The position numbers and the translations under genes are program-made. Below are positions 4,074 through 59,905 of a DNA stretch of 64,000 bases, piece by piece. The notes below the pieces were generated by a model. It was not told the origin of the DNA. It did no database searches and saw only the letters and a program-made list of their open reading frames with translations. Source of the DNA: Eledone cirrhosa (lineage: Eukaryota); contig OZ024741.1 of assembly GCA_964016885.1 (NCBI GenBank), positions 217,682,001 to 217,746,000 on the forward strand, given 5' to 3'. The first letter of the stretch is position 1. Each line of letters opens with the position of its first letter.

Positions 4074-4910
4074 TTATACTGGTGGCAGTCTAAGGTGACT
4101 CCTAGATTTGAGTCTGTCTGTCTGTGACAATTGTAAGCCTTGTAACCATTGGTTACACTTGGCATCACCTTCACGTCCAGAATGAAGAGGGTAGTCCTGA
4201 TCTTCAGAGTCACTGACTCTGTCTTCTAGAATCAGTTCGGAGTTTGGTTCTTCAATGTCGGAAAAGTTGTCCGAGACACTCGTAGAGATGCGGTCAAAAC
4301 GAAACATGTCCTCCGTCGGAGACATTAATGAAGAGGACGACTGTATTTTGGCAGAAAACGGCGGATCACGGAATTGTTTCTTTCCATCTCGATGTCCATC
4401 GCATTCGTTCTGAGTCGTCCAGTCACTGTAACTGTCCATTACTTTAGGGTTTGAGCTGTAGTAATCGCTGAAGTTAGATGTGTCACCTCTGCTGGCCGCA
4501 GTCATCTTTATTGGATGCCGTTGGTACTCCTTGTGGTCAGCCATCGTACTCCCTCCGAAAGAGCCACAGAAATCATCAATATCACTAGAGACAGGAGTAT
4601 GTTCATCATCATCATCGTCTTCATCAAGTAAATGTGGACAGGAACGATGCCGCGACAACTTACAGCCAGACATGTCCAGGAATGGATCAATGGCTGGCAA
4701 TGGTTTGGGAAGGTCTTTCACATTACTCCGCGCTCTCTCGATCCTTCGCATACCTGAAGTCATATTGAAATCAGCTCCAGCGGAGGATTTAGCATGATTC
4801 TTTTTGTAGAGTGAAGGGTGCCGAATTTGGTTTAGTGCTTTCAAAGTATTTTCATTCACTTCTGTGGCTGCTCTTGTTAATGGAGGTCGTTTCTTCTTCT
4901 TCTCCGACAT
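4074..4910 (-). CDS. Uncharacterised 278-aa Ser/Asp-rich, probably disordered protein (whole CDS or terminal coding exon)
   Basis: Only non-repetitive, normal-composition ORF besides the LINE. ATG at 4910-4908 in ACCATG context, 5 nt after a polypyrimidine+TAG acceptor; TAA at 4076-4074. The track's N-terminal extension to 5117 is intronic low complexity. Confidence 0.8.
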   Translation of the reverse strand: MSEKKKKRPPLTRAATEVNENTLKALNQIRHPSLYKKNHAKSSAGADFNMTSGMRRIERARSNVKDLPKPLPAIDPFLDMSGCKLSRHRSCPHLLDEDDDDDEHTPVSSDIDDFCGSFGGSTMADHKEYQRHPIKMTAASRGDTSNFSDYYSSNPKVMDSYSDWTTQNECDGHRDGKKQFRDPPFSAKIQSSSSLMSPTEDMFRFDRISTSVSDNFSDIEEPNSELILEDRVSDSEDQDYPLHSGREGDAKCNQWLQGLQLSQTDRLKSRSHLRLPPV

Positions 4911-4915
4911 GGTCA

Positions 4916-4945
4916 CTATAAAGAAACAAGAAACACAAAATAAAT
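4916..4945 (-). promoter_or_regulatory. 3' splice acceptor (polypyrimidine tract + AG)
   Basis: Minus strand reads tttgtgtttcttgtttctttatAG|tgaccATG. Confidence 0.75.
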
Positions 4946-5207
4946 AAATAGAATAAAATAAAATAGAATAAAGCAACAAACAACAAAAAGAAAAATAAAC
5001 AATCAATTTGTGATTAAAATAAGGGTTGACAAAAACATGCACCATCATCACCACCCCGTCACCACCATCATCATCATCACCGCCACCACCAACATCATCA
5101 TCATCAACAACTACCAAATCTTTAAATTTTTTTTTTATCCTCCACCACTTTAAATAATGTCACAACTTCAATTAATTTTGCCAAAACATTGTTTATTCCC
5201 AAATACC

Positions 5208-21984: not shown

Positions 21985-22400
21985 ATCATCATCATCTTTT
22001 TCGTTTTCATAATCATCACCATATTCGTTTAATGTCCATTTTCCACGCTAGCATGGGTTAGATGGGTTGTCTTATTTGAGGCAAGTGAGATCAGGTGACC
22101 GTGTTTTGCTCATACAGAACTGTTTCTGGTTTGGTTTCTATGGCTGGATGCCCTTCCTAATGCCAACTACATGTGTGTACTGGGTGCTTTTTATCGTGAC
22201 ACCTACACGACCACTTTACAGTGTGTACTGGGTGCTTTTTATTGTGACACCTACTCAACCACTTTACAGTGTGTACTGGGTGCTTTTGATTGTGACACCT
22301 ACATGACCACTTTACAGTGTGTACTGGGTGCATTTTATCATGGCACCAGCACAAGAAAGGTTATCATGTACTTGATACAATTGAAGAGTTCTCACAAACC
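21985..22400 (-). mobile_element. RTE 3' UTR copy with ~4 48-bp units
   Basis: catcatc tail, ttccacgctagcatgggttaga, ggatgcccttcctaa, then cactttacagtgtgtactgggtgc units. Confidence 0.85.
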
Positions 22401-26369: not shown

Positions 26370-26686
26370 TACATACATACATACATCATCATCATCATCA
26401 TCATCACCGTTTTACGTCCGTTCTTCCACGCTAGCATGGGTTAGACGGGTTGTCCTGTTGTGGGCAGTGTCTGGTCGGCTGACCATGCCTTGCTCATACA
26501 GGAACTGATCTGGCTTGATTTCTACAGCTGGATGCCCTTCCTAACACCAACCTCATTTACAGTGAGTGCTGGGTGCTTTTTCGTGGCGCCTACACGTCCA
26601 CTTTACAGTGTGGGCTGGGTGCTTTTTTGCCGTGGCACCTCCACGACCACCTTGCGGTGGGGGGGGGGGCATATTGTTTATATGCT

Positions 26687-29600
26687 TCAGCATGTACCCA
26701 TGGGAGGTCGGGTACCCTGTATTACTGCGTGACGCCAGAAGTCACGGTCGTGTGTCATTGACTTTGAGAGGTGTAGTTGGGTAAGGTCGGCTTTTATCAC
26801 CTCATCCCAAGTCATCTTGGGTCTCCCCACTCCGCGGTTTCCATCAACTTCTAGTGCTCTGCACCTTTTTATGCAGCTGTCATCCTTCATACGCATCACA
26901 TGTCCATACCAGCGTAACCGCCTCTCCTGCACGCAGCATTTGATTCCTCTTATGCTCAGTCTCTCTCTCAATTCATTTATGCTTTGTCGTTCACGTATAT
27001 TACTGTTACACATCCATCGGAGCATGCAGGCTTCGTTTCTCTCTAATCTACGTAAGTCTTCCACCTTCAGCGCCCAGGTCTCACTACCATGCAACATCGC
27101 TGTTCGGATACACGCATCATACAGTCTGCCTTTCATTCTGAGGGAGAAGCCTTTTGCAGCTAGCAGTGGTAGTAGTTCCCTAAACTTCTTCCATCCCGTT
27201 CTTACCCTAGTTATTGTACTTTCTGAGCACCCACCTCCGTTGCTAATTCGGTCACCTAGGTAGCAGAAGCTGTCTACTGTTTCTACAGGGCCCTCCCAGA
27301 GATTGGTGGTACTTGTTTCCTGTGGCTGTTTGCTTGCTGTTTCAGCACAGCTGCTGCATGTGAATCCTACATTCTTAATTAAGCTTCCTGAGATCCCGCT
27401 ACATCTCTTGTGTACCCATTGTTTGCATTTGGGGCAAAGAATGGAGTTCCTACCTACACCTTTCCTACATACTGAGCAAGGCCATTTCCCTGAGGGGATC
27501 TGGGTTCTGTTTTCTCGTCTACTTATAAGGACCTTAGTCTTTGTCATGTTGACTTTGAGGCCCTTTCTCTCTAGTCCCTGCTTCCAGGTTTGGAATTTAT
27601 TCTCTAGTTCTACCATAGATTCAGCTATGAGTGCGAGGTCATCAGCATACAGGAGTTCCCATGGGCATCCGGTCTTAAACTCCTCCGTTATTGCCTGCAG
27701 GACTATGATGAACAGGAGAGGGCTAAGAACAGAGCCCTGGTGGACCCCAACCTGTACGCTAAATTCCTCGCTATACTCATTGCCAATCCTAACTTTGCTG
27801 ACTGCTCCCCTATACATGGCTTGTACCGCTTTCACAAGCCATTCATCTACTCCTAGTTTTCTAAGAGCCCACCAGATTACTGCACGTGGAACTCTGTCAA
27901 AGGCTTTCTCAAGGTCGACAAATGCCAAGTAGAGTGGCTTACTTTTAGCTAGGTACTTTTCCTGTAATTGCCTCACAAGGAAGAGCGCATCAGTGGTGCC
28001 TTTCCCTGGAACAAACCCAAATTGCATCTCGTCTATATTCACCCGGTCCCTAATCAGCTGTGCTATAACTCTTTCTGTTACTTTCATGACCTGGTCCATC
28101 AACTTTATACCTCTATAGTTTCCTCTATCTAGTGCATCGCCTTTACCTTTGTAGCAGTTGACAATGATGCTACTGCACCAATCTTTTGGTATGGCCCCCT
28201 CTAGTATTACCTGGTTAACGATACGTGTGGTTATAGTGTGACCTACAGACCCAGATGCCTTCAGCATCTCGGCAGCTATACCCGATGGACCGGTTGCCTT
28301 CCCTATCTTCATATCTCTGATTGCCTTACTTACTACGCTGCCGCTGACTTGTACTGCTGGTCCCTCTATAGGGTCTACGTGGGGTAGGGTCTCTTCTTCC
28401 CATGCATTCTCCTCATTTAGTAATCTATCATAATGACTCTTCCATGCATCTTTCTTCTCAGCACTTGTGAGGGCAAGCTCACCTTTATCATTCCGGATAC
28501 ACTTCTCTCCAATGACATCACAACTATCTCTGACACACTGCCTCGCAATCTTGAATACCTCCTGTTTCTGGTCCTCACGTTGTAAAACATGCTTGAATTT
28601 TCTATCCTCTGCTTCCCTCCTAGCTAAGTATACTTGTCGCCTAGCTTCCCTCTTGGTCTCTATGTAATGTACCCTGCTCCCCCCGTTCTTCCATTCTTTC
28701 CATGCCTGTCTCTTGGCCTTGACTGCTTCATCTACCTTATTGTTCCACCACCAAGTCACTCTCCTCCTGCTTGAGGTCTTACTCCAGCCACAAACCTCAT
28801 CCGTCGCCTCTAGTAAGTTATTTTTTAGGAACTCCCAGTTCTCTTCTACGTTAAATGTCTCTATCTGTTCTTCTTTACTGTCGTAGGCGTTGAGTAAAAT
28901 ATCTTTAAATCTGTTACTGGTTGAGGGGACTTTCAGCTTCCAGATCTTTCTTCTCCAGGTTGGCCTCTGTTTCAGGGCTCGTCTAGTTCTGACCGTGAGG
29001 TCGCTGACAACTAAGCTATGTTGGGATGTACATTCCTCACTAGGGAAGGCTTTTGTGTTTACGACCGTCCATCTGTCACGTCCTCTGATGAGGATAAAAT
29101 CTAACTGACTAGAGTGCTCCCCTGATCTATAGGTGATCAGGTGGTTGTCGGGTTTTTTAAAGTTTGTGTTACATATCGACATGTCATTGGCGTCGCAGAA
29201 TTCTAGAAGTCTGAATCCTTCCTCATTCCTTGTGCCAACTCCATGGCCTCCATGTACTCTATTGAAGCCGTCGCAGTGTTTACCTACGTGTCCGTTAAAA
29301 TCTCCTGCAATGATTAGGAAGTCCTTGTCGTCTGTTAGAGCAGTAGTGTGTATTAGGGACTCGTAAAACCTATCCTTAAGTTCGTCTGGCAGCCCCGATT
29401 GGGGTGCGTAAGCTGATATTATTGTGGTAATTGTCTTATTCAGGACTAGTCTGAGTTTAATGATTCTTGCATTTACCCTGTACACTGAGATTACTTTATC
29501 TACCCACTTGTCAGCTAATAGTATACCTACACCACCCATCCCATCGTCATTTCCCACCCAGAAAAATTTGTAGCACTGGCTTTTTCCTACAAGGACTCTA

Positions 29601-29806
29601 GCAGACCCTCCTCTCCATCTAGTCTCTTGCACACAGCATACATCAACTTCCTTTCGCTCTAGCATTTCTACGATTTCTCCTGCTCTTCCTTTCATTGAGC
29701 CTACATTGATGGTACCAACTCGGAGTTTTGGGCATTTGTCGACACTCGTAGGGGAGGGTCTCTGGGTTGGCGCTTCACGTGGGTGCTTGGTAGCTCGCAG
29801 ATTCAT
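26687..29806 (-). CDS. RTE LINE ORF: APE endonuclease + reverse transcriptase with an inserted PHD finger (1039 aa)
   Basis: APE motifs TINV, VQETRW, SAYAPQ, GDFN, SQLDFI, SQH; RT motifs [32 protein letters not shown]; RTE C-terminal LHGSETW, LRWYGHV, GRPKMTW; uninterrupted frame. Confidence 0.97.
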   Translation of the reverse strand: MNLRATKHPREAPTQRPSPTSVDKCPKLRVGTINVGSMKGRAGEIVEMLERKEVDVCCVQETRWRGGSARVLVGKSQCYKFFWVGNDDGMGGVGILLADKWVDKVISVYRVNARIIKLRLVLNKTITTIISAYAPQSGLPDELKDRFYESLIHTTALTDDKDFLIIAGDFNGHVGKHCDGFNRVHGGHGVGTRNEEGFRLLEFCDANDMSICNTNFKKPDNHLITYRSGEHSSQLDFILIRGRDRWTVVNTKAFPSEECTSQHSLVVSDLTVRTRRALKQRPTWRRKIWKLKVPSTSNRFKDILLNAYDSKEEQIETFNVEENWEFLKNNLLEATDEVCGWSKTSSRRRVTWWWNNKVDEAVKAKRQAWKEWKNGGSRVHYIETKREARRQVYLARREAEDRKFKHVLQREDQKQEVFKIARQCVRDSCDVIGEKCIRNDKGELALTSAEKKDAWKSHYDRLLNEENAWEEETLPHVDPIEGPAVQVSGSVVSKAIRDMKIGKATGPSGIAAEMLKASGSVGHTITTRIVNQVILEGAIPKDWCSSIIVNCYKGKGDALDRGNYRGIKLMDQVMKVTERVIAQLIRDRVNIDEMQFGFVPGKGTTDALFLVRQLQEKYLAKSKPLYLAFVDLEKAFDRVPRAVIWWALRKLGVDEWLVKAVQAMYRGAVSKVRIGNEYSEEFSVQVGVHQGSVLSPLLFIIVLQAITEEFKTGCPWELLYADDLALIAESMVELENKFQTWKQGLERKGLKVNMTKTKVLISRRENRTQIPSGKWPCSVCRKGVGRNSILCPKCKQWVHKRCSGISGSLIKNVGFTCSSCAETASKQPQETSTTNLWEGPVETVDSFCYLGDRISNGGGCSESTITRVRTGWKKFRELLPLLAAKGFSLRMKGRLYDACIRTAMLHGSETWALKVEDLRRLERNEACMLRWMCNSNIRERQSINELRERLSIRGIKCCVQERRLRWYGHVMRMKDDSCIKRCRALEVDGNRGVGRPKMTWDEVIKADLTQLHLSKSMTHDRDFWRHAVIQGTRPPMGTC

Positions 29807-30048
29807 ATTTCATCTATTGATTCAGAGTTGCTCGTGTATTCCCAGCTCATCCATCCCTAACGGTGGGAAAATTGAGGGCTAGAAGGACAGTGGTGGTGGG
29901 GTAATGGCAGGGTGTGTTGGGATGCGCCAGAGGAGGAGAGAGTTAGTTAGGCAGGTAGTAGCAGCAGCAGCAGTGGAAATGGCATGCTAGGTTTGATTGG
30001 TCGAATAGACTATGGTGGTGTGTGGGGGTGGGGGGAGGGAAATTGTGA

Positions 30049-31810
30049 GGTAGGAACTGAGGGTCGCATGGTAAATATCCAAGTTAATACTACATCAGTA
30101 AAATTAACAATAATAACGTCATGAAAAAAGCTACTAAGAGAAACCCTCGAAAATTTATCGCTAATACAGCAGGGAAAATTTAACGCTAATACAGCAGGGA
30201 ACATCATAATATTAACGACATGAAAAAGCTACTAAGAGAAACCCTCGAAAATTTATCGCTAATACAGCAGGGAAAATTTAACGCTAATACAGCAGGGAAC
30301 ATCATAATATTAACGACAATATGTAGGCTAAAATACCTTCGTAGATTAGGTGGATGGCTGGCTGGGAAAATTTGAATCAGCTCAGTGGTACATTTTAGCA
30401 GAGAAGAATGGCAAAGTGTCTTATCTCTTCAATATTTTCAGATTGAATGAATTAGGTTAAAGACAGGGTAGTAAGCCTTAAAGAAGTGCATAGAGGGGGG
30501 GGGGGGGTAGGAACTGAGGGTCGCATGGTAAATAACTGAGAGAGATACAATAGGATTAGAATACCGCATGGTAAATATCCAAGTTAATAAGTTAATACTA
30601 CATCAGTAAAATTAACAATAATAACGTCATGAAAAAAGCTACTAAGAGAAACCCTCGAAAATTTATCGCTAATACAGCAGGGAAAATTTAACGCTAATAC
30701 AGCAGGGAACATCATAATATTAACGACATGAAAAAAGCTACTAAGAGAAACCCTCGAAAATTTATCGCTAATACAGCAGGGAAAATTTAACGCTAATACA
30801 GCAGGGAACATCATAATATTAACGACATGAAAAAGCTACTAAGAGAAACCCTCGAAAATTTATCGCTAATACAGCAGGGAAAATTTAACGCTAATACAGC
30901 AGGGAACATCATAATATTAACGACAATATGTAGGCTAAAATACCTTCGTAGATTAGGTGGATGGCTGGCTGGGAAAATTTGAATCAGCTCAGTGGTACAT
31001 TTTAGCAGAGAAGAATGGCAAAGTGTCTTATCTCTTCAATATTTTCAGATTGAATGAATTAGGTTAAAGACAGGGTAGTAAGCCTTAAAGAAGTGCATAG
31101 AGGGGGGGGTAGGAACTGAGGGTCGCATGGTAAATAACTGAGAGAGATACAATAGGATTAGAATACCGCATGGTAAATATCCAAGTTAATAAGTTAATAC
31201 TACATCAGTAAAATTAACAATAATAACGTCATGAAAAAAGCTACTAAGAGAAACCCTCGAAAATTTATCGCTAATACAGCAGGGAAAATTTAACGCTAAT
31301 ACAGCAGGGAACATCATAATATTAACGACATGAAAAAGCTACTAAGAGAAACCCTCGAAAATTTATCGCTAATACAGCAGGGAAAATTTAACGCTAATAC
31401 AGCAGGGAACATCATAATATTAACGACAATATGTAGGCTAAAATACCTTCGTAGATTAGGTGGATGGCTGGCTGGGAAAATTTGAATCAGCTCAGTGGTA
31501 CATTTTAGCAGAGAAGAATGGCAAAGTGTCTTATCTCTTCAATATTTTCAGATTGAATGAATTAGGTTAAAGACAGGGTAGTAAGCCTTAAAGAAGTGCA
31601 TAGAGGGGGGGGGGGGGGTAGGAACTGAGGGTCGCATGGTAAATAACTGAGAGAGATACAATAGGATTAGAATACCGCATGGTAAATATCCAAGTTAATA
31701 AGTTAATACTACATCAGTAAAATTAACAATAATAACGTCATGAAAAAAGCTACTAAGAGAAACCCTCGAAAATTTATCGCTAATACAGCAGGGAAAATTT
31801 AACGCTAATA
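30049..31810 (-). repeat. Hierarchical tandem monomers (~460-600 bp, 3 full + 1 partial) at the LINE 5' end
   Basis: gtaggaactgagggtcgcatggtaaat recurs at ~30049, 30507, 31109, 31618; each monomer has 2-3 ~100-bp subunits containing 25-bp repeats (cgctaatacagcagggaa). Confidence 0.92.
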
Positions 31811-32075
31811 CATATATATATATATCTATATGTGTAGATTTAACACTTCACTGCTCGCAAGTGTTTTTTAAGCTTCATATGTCTCCCTATTTTATCTGAT
31901 GAGAACGCAAATATCATCCCATGATGATATTTGTTTTTGAAATGCGCATAATAAAATACATGGGACTCTTTTAACCATCTTTTGATCTTATGTTATACTC
32001 CAGTCCTATAAACTGTTGAGTGCTACTTATCTGATATTTGCATTGCTTTATTGTGCTACAATAAAACTCACCTCC

Positions 32076-37267: not shown

Positions 37268-38812
37268 CACCACACTGTAAAGTGGTCATGATGATGACAT
37301 GACAAAAAGCACCCAGCCCACACTGTAAAGTGGTCATGATGGTTACACGACAAAAAGTACCCAGCCCACACTGAAAAGGGGTCATGTTGGAAACATGACA
37401 AAAAGCACCCGGCCCACACTGTAAAGTGGTCATGTAGGTGTCATGAAAAAAAGCACCCAGCCTACACTGTAAAGTGGTCATGTAGGTGTCACGGTACACT
37501 GTAAAGTGGTCATGAGGTTGTCATGATAAAAAGCACCTAGTCCACACTGTAAAGCGGTCGTGTAGGTGTCATGACAAAAAGTACCCAGCCTACACTGTAA
37601 AGTGGTCATGTAAGTGTCACAATAAAAAGCACCCAGTCCACACTGTAAAGCGGTCGTGTAGGTGTCATGACAAAAAGCACCCAGCCTACACTGTAAAGTG
37701 GCCATGTAGGTGTCACAATAAAAAGCACCTAGTCCACACTGTAAAGCGGTCGTGTAGGTGTCATGACAAAAAGTACCCAGCCTACACTGTAAAGTGGTCA
37801 TGTAAGTGTCACAATAAAAAGCACCCAGTCCACACTGTAAAGCGGTCGTGTAGGTGTCATGACAAAAAGCACCCAGCCTACACTGTAAAGTGGCCATGTA
37901 GGTGTCACAATCAAAAGCACCTAGTCCACACTGTAAAGCGGTCGTGTAGGTGTCATGACAAAAAGTACCCAGCCTACACTGTAAAGTGGTCATGTAAGTG
38001 TCACAATAAAAAGCACCCAGTCCACACTGTAAAGCGGCCGTGTAGGTGTCATGACAAAAAGTACCCAGCCTACACTGTAAAGTGGTCATGTAAGTGTCAC
38101 AATAAAAAGCACCCAGTCCACACTGTAAAGCGGTCGTGTAGGTGTCATGACAAAAAGCACCCAGTCTACACTGTAAAGTGGCCATGTAGGTGTCACAATC
38201 AAAAGCACCTAGTCCACACTGTAAAGCGGTCGTGTAGGTGTCATGACAAAAAGTACCCAGCCTACACTGTAAAGTGGTCATGTAAGTGTCACAATAAAAA
38301 GCACCCAGTCCACACTGTAAAGCGGTCGTGTAGGTGTCATGACAAAAAGCACCCAGCCTACACTGTAAAGTGGTCATGTAGGTGTCACAATAAAAAGCAC
38401 CCAGTCCACACTGTAAAGCGGTCGTGTAGGTGTCATGACAAAAAGCACCCAGGCTACACTGTAAAGTGGTCATGTAGGTGTCACAATAAAAAGCACCCAG
38501 TCCACACTGTAAAGCGGTCGTGTAGGTGTCATGACAAAAAGCACCCAGCCTACACTGTAAAGTGGTCATGTAGGTGTCACAATAAAAAGCACCTAGTCCA
38601 CACTGTAAAGCGGTCGTGTAGGTGTCATGACAAAAAGTACCCAACACTCACTGTAAATGTGGTTGGCATTAGGAAAGACATCCAACCATAGAAACCAAGC
38701 CCAAATCAGTTCTGTATGAGCAAGACAGTCATCTGACCTGGCTTGTCTCACAACAGGACAACTTATTTAACCCATACTAGTGTGGAAAAATGGAAGTTAA
38801 GCAGTGATGATG
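37268..38812 (+). repeat. RTE 3' UTR copy with the 48-bp unit expanded to ~29 copies (96-bp and higher-order structure)
   Basis: cacactgtaaag(t/c)ggtc(a/g)tgtaggtgtca...aaaaagcacccag units run into the normal UTR end and tail at 38650-38812. Confidence 0.95.
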
Positions 38813-43444: not shown

Positions 43445-43446
<2 letters not shown>

Positions 43447-44840
43447 TAGCAATGAGTATAGCGAGGAATTTAGCGTACAGGTTGGGGTCCACCAGGGCTC
43501 TGTTCTTAGCCCTCTCCTGTTCATCATAGTCCTGCAGGCAATAACGGAGGAGTTTAAGACCGGATGCCCATGGGAACTCCTGTATGCTGATGACCTCGCA
43601 CTCATAGCTGAATCTATGGTAGAACTAGAGAATAAATTCCAAACCTGGAAGCAGGGACTAGAGAGAAAGGGTCTCAAAGTCAACATGACCAAGACTAAGG
43701 TCCTTGTAAGTAGACGAGAAAACAGAACCCAGATCCCCTCGGGGAAATGGCCTTGCTCAGTATGTAGGAAAGGTGTAGGTAGGAACTCCATTCTCTGCCC
43801 CAAATGCAAACAATGGGTACCATAGAGATGTAGCGGGATCTCAGGAAGCTTAATTAAGAATGTAGGATTCACATGCAGCAGCTGTGCTGAAGCAGCAAAC
43901 AGCCACAGGAAACAAGTACCACCAATCTCTGGGAGGGCCCTGTAGAAACAGTAGACAGCTTCTGCTACCTAGGTGACCGAATTAGCAACGGAGGTGGGTG
44001 TTCAGAAAGTACAATAACTAGGGTAAGAACGGGATGGAAGAAGTTTAGGGAACTACTACCACTGCTAGCTGCAAAAGGCTTCTCCCTCAGAATGAAAGGC
44101 AGACTGTATGATGCGTGTATCCGAACAGCGATGTTGCATGGTAGTGAGACCTGGGCGCTGAAGGTGGAAGACTTACGTAGATTAGAGAGAAACGAAGCCT
44201 GCATGCTCCGATGGATGTGTAACAGTAATATACGCGAACGACAAAGCATAAATGAATTGAGAGAGAGACTGAGCATAAGAGGAATCAAATGCTGTGTGCA
44301 GGAGAGGCGGTTGCGCTGGTATGGACATGTGATGCGTATGAAGGATGACAGCTGCATAAAAAGGTGCAGAGCACTAGAAGTTGATGGAAACCGCGGAGTG
44401 GGGAGACCCAAGATGACCTAGGATGAGGTGATAAAAGCCGACCTTACCCAATTACACCTCTCAAAGACAATGACACACGACCGTGACTTCTGGCATCACG
44501 CAGTAATACAGGGTACCCGACCTCCCATGGGTACATGCTGAAGCAAATAAACAATATGCCCCCACACCCCCCACCGCAAGGTGGTCGTGGAGGTGCCACG
44601 ACAAAAAAGCACCCAGCCCACACTGTAAAGTGGACGTGTAGGAGCCACAAAAAAGCACCCAGCACTCACTGTAAATGAGGTTGGTGTTAGGAAGGGCATC
44701 CAGCTGTAGAAATCAAGCCAGATCAGTTCCTGTATGAGCAAGGCATGGTCAGCCGACCAGACACTGCACACAACAGGACAACCCGTCTAACCCATGCTAG
44801 CGTGGAAGAACGGACGTAAAACGGTGATGATGATGATGAT
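43445..44840 (+). pseudogene. 5'-truncated, disabled copy (~1.4 kb) of the intact RTE
   Basis: Near-identical to the reverse complement of 26384-27787, but with TAG in the PHD (WVP*), a 4-bp deletion near 43890 and W->TAG at ~44419; (TA)n-rich flanks. Confidence 0.97.
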
Positions 44841-47296: not shown

Positions 47297-48165
47297 TCAT
47301 CATCATTATCATCACCGTTTAAAGTCCATTTTTCCACACTAGCATGGGTTAGAGAGGTTGTCCCATTTGAGGCAAGTTGGGTCCGGTGACCATGTCTTGC
47401 TCACGCAGAACTGTTTCTGGCTTGGTTTCTACGGCTGGATGCCTTTCCTAATGCTAACCACATTTACAGAGTGGACAGGGTGCTTTTTGTCGTGACTCCT
47501 ACATGACCACTTTACAGTGGGGACAAGGTGCTTTTTGTTGTGACACCTACACAACCACTTTACAGAGTGGACAGGGTGCTTTTTGTCGTGACTCTTATAC
47601 GACCACTTTACAGTGTGGGCTGGGTGCTTTTTGTTGTGACACTTGCACGACCACTTTACAGAGTGGACAGGGTGCTTTTTGTTGTGACACCTACACGACC
47701 ACTTTACAGAGTGGACAGGGTGCACGACCACATATTATATATGCAGTAGAGGTAGATCAAGAAAGACCTGGGCAGAGGTGCTGTGAGCTGATCCTAGATC
47801 GCTGAGACTCACAGAGGGGATAACAAAGGACTGTGATGAGTGGAGAGATGAAAAGGACCCATCCAACCCATGCAAGCATGGAAAAATGGCCGGAAAAAAC
47901 GATGATGATGATATATATATCCCATAAGGTAGTAGTGGTGGTGCCATGATGAAAAGCACCCAATCCCCTATGTATGGTGCTAGAACCAGAGTCACAACAA
48001 AAAGCACCCAGTACATGTTTTAAAGTGGTTGGCATTAGGAAGGGGATCCAAGCCCAAAACGGAATGTATGGGCAAGACATGGTCACCTGACTAAGTCTAC
48101 CCTCAGTCTGTGATAACCCATCTAACCCAAGCAAGCATGGAAAATAGATATTAAACTATGATGAT
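47297..48165. mobile_element. Cluster of RTE 3' ends (47297-47730 - with ~5.5 48-bp units; 47745-47910 +; 47930-48165 +)
   Basis: UTR motifs and (TGA)n tails. Confidence 0.8.
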
Positions 48166-57654: not shown

Positions 57655-58248
57655 ACTGTGATAAAATACACCCAGTACACTCTGTAATGTGGTATGGCTG
57701 GTGACATGATAAAATACACCCAGTACACTTTGTAAAGTGGGAGTTTTGGTGTTATGATAAAATACACCTAGTACACTCTGTAATGTGGTAGTGCTGGTGA
57801 TATGATAAAATACACCTAGTACACTCTGTAATGTGGTAGTGCTGGTGATATGATAAAATACACCTAATACACTCTGTAAAGTGGCAGTTCTGGTGTCACA
57901 ATAAAATACACCCAGTACATTCTCTAATGTGGTAGTGCTGGTGACATGATAAAATACACCCAGTACATTGTAAAATAGTAGGGTTCGTGACATGATAAAT
58001 ACACCCAGTACACTCTGTAAAGTGGTAGTGTTGGTGTCATGGTAAAATACACCCAGTTCACACTATAATGTGGTTGGTATTAGGAAGGGCATCCAGTCAT
58101 AGAAAACATGTCTAAAATGGGAGTGGTTGATCAAAACATGGTAATGTCACCTCTCTAGTCTCAAGACTTGACTATCTGTCAAACCCATGCTGACACCGAA
58201 ACTGGGCGTAAAATGGTGACAACAATGATGATAATGACGATGATGACA

Positions 58249-58941: not shown

Positions 58942-59905
58942 TTGGTGCCATGATAAAATACACCCAGTACACTCTGTAAAGTGGTAGTACTGGTGCCATG
59001 ATAAAATACACCCTGTACACTCTGTAAAGTGGTAGTACTGGTGCCATGATAAAATACACCCAGTACACTCTGTAAAGTTGTAGTACTGGTGCCATGATAA
59101 AATACACGCAGTACACTTTGTAAAGTGGTAGTGCTGGTGCTATGATAAAATACACCTAGTACACTCTGTAAAGTTGTAGTACTGGTGCCATGATAAAATA
59201 CACGCAGTATACTTTGTAAAGTTGTAGTACTGGTGCCATGATAAAATACACGCAGTACACTTTGTAAAGTGGTAGTGCTGGTGCTATGATAAAATACACC
59301 TAGTACACTCTGTAAAGTGGTAGTACTGGTGCCATGATAAAATACACCCAGTACACTCACTAAAGTGGTAGTATTGGTGCTATGATAAAATGTACCCAGT
59401 ACACTCTGTAAAGTGGTAGTATTGGTGCTATGATAAAATACACCCAGTACACTCTGTAAATTGGTAGTATTGGTGCCATGATAAAATACAACCTTTACAC
59501 TCAGTAAAGTGGTAGTATTGGTGCTATGATAAAATGTACCCAGTACACTCTGTAAAATGGTAGTGCTGGTGTCTTGATAAAATCCACCCAGTACACTTTG
59601 TAAAGTGGTAGTGCTGGTACTATGATTAAATGTACCCAGTACACTCTGTAAAGTGGTAGTATTGGTGCTATGATAAAATACACCCAGTACACTCTGTAAA
59701 TTGGTAGTATTGGTGCCATGATAAAATACAACCTTTACACTCAGTAAAGTGGTAGTATTGGTGCTATGATAAAATGTACCCAGTACACTCTGTAAAATGG
59801 TAGTGCTGGTGTCTTGATAAAATCCACCCAGTACACTTTGTAAAGTGGTAGTGCTGGTACTATGATTAAATGTACCCAGTACACTCTGTAAAATGGTTGT
59901 GTTGG
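58942..59905 (+). repeat. 48-bp RTE-UTR-derived minisatellite (~20 copies) with a 240-bp higher-order duplication
   Basis: cacccagtacactctgtaaagtggtagtactggtgccatgataaaata; 59401-59640 repeats as 59641-59880. Confidence 0.95.

Follow-up and report, generated by a model that had tools for sequence, protein, structure and literature searches.

The tandem array at the 5′ side of the open reading frame (ORF) described here is probably the variable-length 5′ end of a young LINE, likely of the RTE clade, with a predicted Inr+DPE promoter in each of its monomers. The element lies on the minus strand of the window, by which we mean the whole stretch of 64,000 nucleotides of Eledone cirrhosa DNA that was analysed. 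Its monomers are built from a block A, a number of S units, a block U and a G run, and its parts are arranged as follows.

26384..26407, minus strand: microsatellite tail at the 3′ end, reading (GAT)n on the element strand
26408..26686, minus strand: 3′ UTR of 279 bp, common to many short repeats in the window
26687..29806, minus strand: single ORF of 1,039 aa with APE endonuclease, reverse transcriptase and PHD finger
29807..30049, minus strand: unique tether of 243 bp joining the array to the ATG
30050..30506, minus strand: monomer 1 (ORF-proximal), 457 bp, with a short A lacking 43+8 bp, two S units, U and a G run
30417..30450, minus strand: predicted core promoter of monomer 1, Inr-like TCATTC with A+1 at 30448 and DPE-like AGACA at +28..+32 (30421-30417)
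30507..31108, minus strand: monomer 2, 602 bp, with A, three S units, U and a G run
31024..31057, minus strand: predicted core promoter of monomer 2, A+1 at 31055
31109..31617, minus strand: monomer 3, 509 bp, with A, two S units, U and a G run
31527..31560, minus strand: predicted core promoter of monomer 3, A+1 at 31558, positioned via the identity of the U blocks
31618..31812, minus strand: monomer 4, 195 bp, truncated, with A and 74 bp of S; 5′ end of the insertion
31813..31830, no strand: (TA)n-rich target flank

The element has one ORF with APE endonuclease and reverse transcriptase (RT) domains, no ORF1, and a short 3′ UTR that ends in a microsatellite instead of poly(A), a layout that we take to fit the RTE clade. 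By this layout it is likely an RTE-clade LINE; homologs with the same arrangement of domains, 33-54% identical, carry no clade names. The ORF is intact and matches four copies on another contig at 100% over 3,111 bp, and nearly all fetched copies have a (GAT)n tail in the same place beside the 3′ UTR. The PHD finger follows the RT domain (ORF residues 777-820; window 27300-27480, minus strand) and is common to many unnamed homologs, 45-54% identical. No clear target-site duplication (TSD) was found at the window copy, where it would be unreadable in (TA)n.

Monomers were delimited at one shared landmark, and all follow the formula of A (121 bp), n units of S (98/99 bp; n = 2, 3 and 2), U (179 bp) and a G run, which counts 13, 8 and 14 G in monomers 1-3. 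The sequence-only reading had described three full and one partial near-identical monomers that differ in the number of ~100-bp subunits and in poly-G length, and the measured monomers agree with this; neither among the three U blocks nor among the three full A blocks is there any difference. The abrupt end against (TA)n is also as described, the array breaking off at 31812 after 74 bp of an S unit. Other details had to be adjusted. Each S does contain two near-identical 25-bp units, but it is not a pure 25-bp array. The ~50-bp block reported missing from the ORF-proximal copy corresponds to 51 absent bp, which fall into two pieces of 43 and 8 bp, themselves small tandem duplications. Finally, the array had been placed at 29807..31810; since 29807-30049 is the unique tether, the array proper begins at 30050 and occupies 30050-31812. 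The monomers have a base composition of 35.5% GC with no CpG island, and across the family their size ranges from 350 to 800 bp or more, with nested VNTRs.

A 28-mer from U yielded 1,960 exact matches genome-wide and its reversed control none, and the monomer repeat is therefore not a product of chance. The first 100 of these matches, spanning the first 160 Mb of contig C1, form 32 clusters. The expectation that the monomer would always be found 5′ of this ORF, in variable copy number, was borne out in 31 of the 32: the tether marker is present on the ORF side of 28, three more are joined via a variant tether, and the sole unlinked cluster is a lone 180-bp fragment. We also found the array linked to the LINE at 14/14 further loci from the first DNA search. 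Starting from the tether, we fetched 98 marked copies from C1 and retained 94 after removing four duplicate partners; 81 run into the array and 13 stop within the tether. Complete U blocks number from 0 to at least 44 per C1 copy, with a median array of 1.1 kb, and over all copies studied the array holds from 0 to at least 123 monomers. The array thus belongs to the LINE as a 5′ part that is linked to it and varies in length, and it is the normal 5′ end of the family.

With a single unlinked cluster among these 32, the monomers are not a free satellite. It is extremely improbable that misassembly created the tandem structure, or that a satellite abuts the LINE by chance: one array does exceed 45 kb, and copy numbers rest on the assembly, but the linked clusters share one orientation, and variants and TSDs are specific to each locus. 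Unit junctions (S-S and A-S) are, moreover, present in short-read contigs, from runs that possibly derive from the same sample as the assembly and so give no confirmation of copy number. An alternative 5′ UTR was sought in ten C1 copies with a complete ORF and no tether marker, and was rejected: truncation at the ATG region or short of it accounts for nine, and the tenth carries an older tether. Five of these ten copies (L152, L154, L156, L159 and L160) end within ~15 bp of the ORF ATG, which is perhaps a second hotspot of 5′ ends.

This is a very young LINE family, in which 75 of 103 ORFs have stayed open; among the 31 loci listed, 0-12 differences separate a copy from its nearest relative. 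The ORF lineage predicts the monomer type, with six changes on the tree vs 35.5 after shuffling. An older subfamily stands at 95-97% in the ORF and 70-79% in U and is mostly devoid of S repeats, and the monomer types form a series that starts with this subfamily, passes through types with one S and leads to the multi-S type found in the window. The TSDs enclose the array as well as the tail, with a mean of 3.2 bp vs 1.7 bp permuted (0/300; 29 copies with non-microsatellite flanks), a test that is inflated by some of the 29 loci lying in one minisatellite. Insertion by target-primed reverse transcription is supported by the 5′ truncation together with TSDs around the whole element, array included. 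Flanks are TA-rich at 53/88 5′ sides and 52/88 3′ sides.

Marker counts along the element decrease from 5,838 to 970, and then to the 532 exact genome-wide matches of the tether word plus 225 older tethers. The drop from 5,838 to 970 corresponds to a truncation rate of 0.71 per kb in the ORF, or 0.60 per kb with the 225 older tethers added. Within the array, truncation proceeds at 0.48-0.78 per kb over the first 3 kb, then at 0.35 and 0.20; the mapping of ends bridges gaps of up to 230 bp and so passes nested inserts (L077, L109, L110 and L133). As this resembles the rate in the ORF body, most 5′ ends are plain truncations of a longer template. The 79 array ends are distributed over S (29), U (24), A (25) and G (1), and 72 of them lie outside positions 122-137 of U, so the break at 31812 is an ordinary truncation and not the start site it might have marked. 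Inside U122-137 we counted 7 ends vs 2.3 expected on C1, an excess noticed post hoc. Among the matches listed genome-wide, forward-strand junctions numbered 21 in the Inr window vs 13, 7 and 4 in three controls, the 21 being inflated by a search word that also matches the older subfamily (8/28 listed loci). A hand count of the young subfamily outside C1, the discovery contig, gave 12-14 vs 8, 7 and 6 among the matches listed (p 0.04-0.10). The enrichment of 5′ ends near the Inr +1 is modest, at ~2-3-fold. In the older subfamily, 2/17 loci with a U core end exactly at +1.

On the element strand, each full monomer carries TCATTC, whose A+1 falls at U132, and AGACA, which occupies exactly +28 to +32. 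We take these to be Inr-like and DPE-like, respectively, by the fly consensus words. Both motifs at this exact spacing arose by chance in 37 of 5,000 shuffles, and the truncated monomer 4 stops short of any Inr. For comparison with the older subfamily, loci were picked by tether alone (the first 30 of 225); 17 of them hold the U core, 19 cores in all, from which 14 were aligned; the five left out are two duplicates, two cores that end at +1 and one that is cut before it. A+1 and the DPE are exactly 27 bp apart in 13 of these 14 cores. The older cores vary in length and letters above -3 and at +34..+45, and their Inr is mostly TCACTC, off the strict fly consensus. Conservation is not limited to Inr and DPE, as +46..+75 is also conserved. 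We conclude that each monomer likely holds a conserved, predicted internal core promoter for RNA polymerase II. A convergent monomer-promoter architecture in an RTE, as the sequence-only reading had put forward, is therefore the best reading of an array that is linked to the LINE and carries a conserved Inr/DPE-like core: the linkage, the variable length and the core in each monomer speak for it. The stack would then likely be a predicted, convergent promoter of the mouse-L1 type.

The leader from the first Inr (651 nt; window 29807-30448, minus strand) contains 14 AUGs, one of them out of frame and 7 nt ahead of the ORF ATG. This leader is without any long frame, and a coding role for the array was rejected. 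Deposited runs were considered for expression, and the sole RNA-labelled run has a small share and consists of gut metatranscriptome contigs; contigs do not reveal starts. Runs of other organisms were set aside as evidence of conservation, as they provided short pieces only.

In the mechanism that we favour, transcription would begin at a monomer's Inr, mostly in a distal monomer, and reverse transcription would halt at random, at about 0.7 per kb, shortening the stack. Unequal exchange or slippage among the near-identical units would lengthen it again, and most new copies would descend from those with long stacks. With a predicted promoter in every monomer, a copy cut short would therefore be likely to keep one while one unit remains.

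The number of monomers and subunits does change after insertion, at the DNA level. Loci L109 and L110 have common junctions and a nested 195-bp insert, yet contain 17 vs 13 monomers; they represent one insertion in duplicated DNA, and two alleles assembled apart would mean the same. At L115 a block of 14 monomers is present twice, private variants included. The longest array (L130, L165, L200-L202; G000:C1:422.74-422.79 Mb) extends past 45 kb with at least 123 monomers, contains no N gaps and displays higher-order 355/405-bp patterns; the probability of reaching this length by uninterrupted reverse transcription is about 1e-10 or less. Most private substitutions do not go beyond one monomer (31 in a single monomer, 5 partial and 1 array-wide), and post-insertion turnover is therefore slow at most loci. 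The nested insert of L109 and L110 is a ~195-bp SINE-like repeat, which we also found inserted into monomers at L144, L145 and L177, at similar AT-rich sites (A/S junction region). At L167/L168 (G000:C2:412.28 Mb), a 4,040-bp segment with a whole element and a one-monomer array is duplicated head to tail in at least 2.3 copies.

The number of S units is far more uniform inside an array than from one array to the next (within share 0.37, 0/10,000 permutations; 18 arrays, 76 monomers), and the contrast between arrays holds even among copies with identical ORFs, such as the window copy (2,3,2) and J45 (5,3,3,2,2,3). DNA-level exchange alone accounts poorly for this likeness, which reflects either many source copies passing on their own arrays or units re-copied at insertion. 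The stack could thus have the same promoter role and be regrown mainly at insertion, with the reverse transcriptase jumping back from the RNA 5′ end to the equivalent point one or more monomers downstream and copying the units again before it finally detaches. Such regrowth fits the array-specific S numbers just given, the periodic S patterns of L090 (4,5,4,5) and of the alternating L084 and L102, and the unchanged truncation rate within the array with its weak Inr excess. It also fits monomers that have mutated at the ORF rate since insertion (6.5e-4 private substitutions per bp vs 7.2e-4 in the ORF), and it is favoured by the reiterated units at some 5′ junctions: a 26-bp piece of A present about five times at L120, a 19-bp duplication at L104, and three copies of 23 bp of target beside a 7-bp TSD at L196 (L203 / L196). 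From these pieces it follows that re-copying does occur on a small scale, and the element may generate mini- and microsatellites while inserting. Insertion regrowth cannot, however, yield the difference of 17 vs 13 monomers, the duplication of a block with private mutations or the 45-kb array. Lineage SNPs in U that are common to monomer 1 and distal monomers mean that exchange points are not limited to the Inr, and the same pattern would arise from numerous source copies that each have an array of their own. We rank DNA-level regrowth as shown; the template jumps at insertion suggested in the sequence-only reading are unlikely to be the main source of the stacks but may complement it. That the element rebuilds its promoter stack at each insertion by re-copying, some stacks growing into promoter-bearing macrosatellites of more than 45 kb, is a tentative possibility; if true, it would describe a LINE that renews its own promoter and seeds satellite DNA.

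The spread of ends over all blocks at the ORF-body rate, and the borderline independent support for the Inr excess, would also suit an array that is a captured, unstable minisatellite riding in a long 5′ UTR, with host or dispersed starts and an incidental Inr and DPE. A review likewise has RTEs with HDV-like ribozymes as promoterless (PMC6765202). Such a captured minisatellite is quite improbable in view of the +1/+28 spacing, which is fixed across subfamilies with monomers only 70-79% alike. Furthermore, the 5′ flanks, read by eye, share nothing, segmental duplicates aside, and no ribozyme was found that could cut a read-through transcript. The suggestion of an HDV-like ribozyme at the 5′ end was not upheld: up to E 5, no Rfam ribozyme was found in the 5′ region, where the matches were those expected by chance (the best with E 0.081 on the TA flank, and snR32, on the opposite strand, with E 1.7). 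Descriptors of the HDV and hammerhead folds, run without a positive control, produced 0 matches.

The predicted monomer promoter invites comparison with known systems. According to PMC5381506, PMC6454616 and PMC9022269, mouse L1Md (A, Tf, Gf) and rat L1 have tandem monomers and a ~250-bp tether before the ORF, a variable monomer number, a cut outermost monomer and a distinct ORF-proximal monomer, and rare, very long mouse arrays (50 monomers) are ascribed there to unequal crossing-over. Variable tandem monomers and a tether 5′ of the ORF are shared by the element described here. Unlike mouse L1, it is RTE-like with a single ORF and no ORF1, its larger monomers contain nested VNTRs and are poor in GC, and it has a predicted Inr+DPE instead of YY1/AP-1 sites. 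Clustering of its 5′ ends is weak, in contrast to the strong site that 5′ ends of mouse type A have in common, and its arrays reach at least 123 units vs the 50 given there for mouse L1. By analogy, the stack likely works as the mouse and rat L1 monomer promoters do, as a prediction, but it is not a member of that group.

The insect non-LTR elements jockey, Doc, G, I, F, SART1 and TRAS1 are described in PMC4748587 as having TATA-less internal Inr+DPE promoters with the DPE at ~+28 to +32. The predicted core here is likewise TATA-less, inside the transcript and with the DPE at the same position; the insect elements have a single promoter at the 5′ end, whereas here one per monomer is predicted, in a stack. 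The A module of Dictyostelium TRE5-A occurs in tandem copies. TRE5-A is a two-ORF, tRNA-targeted element whose 5′ A module has promoter activity (PMC5911963), and it resembles the present element, with its predicted promoter, in this 5′ module. In PMC9115989, RTE-2_OV of Octopus vulgaris is given as encoding 1,109 aa between UTRs that measure about 600 nt; compared by description only, it shares the one ORF (endonuclease, RT, zinc finger) and the microsatellite 3′ end. The accessible parts of the octopus repeat papers PMC9115989 and PMC13282606 mention no monomer array, and the word ‘tandem’ is absent from the main text of PMC9115989. No RTE precedent for a monomer-promoter design was found in the open-licence literature.

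How arrays are maintained despite truncation is called unclear even for mouse L1 in PMC6454616. The question becomes directly testable in an unrelated clade through about 500 near-identical copies whose subunit counts can be scored, along with duplicate pairs and older subfamilies, and the element already shows a DNA-level route of array change at work. If the promoter prediction holds, an RTE-like element would have its own Inr+DPE promoter instead of read-through and a ribozyme, about 2,000 predicted core promoters would be scattered over the genome, and a satellite would be seen growing out of a LINE 5′ end.

The window also contains other repeats and frames. A second, 5′-truncated copy of the same LINE lies at 43445-44831 on the plus strand, is 97.8% identical and is flanked by (TA)n as well. 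Many short SINE-like repeats in the window carry the 3′ end of the LINE, and 48-bp minisatellites at 22168-22338, 37270-38663, 47457-47723, 57659-58074 and 58943-59897 match part of its 3′ UTR at 72-85%. Finally, an open frame of 361 codons at 4074-5159 on the minus strand has the appearance of a host exon.
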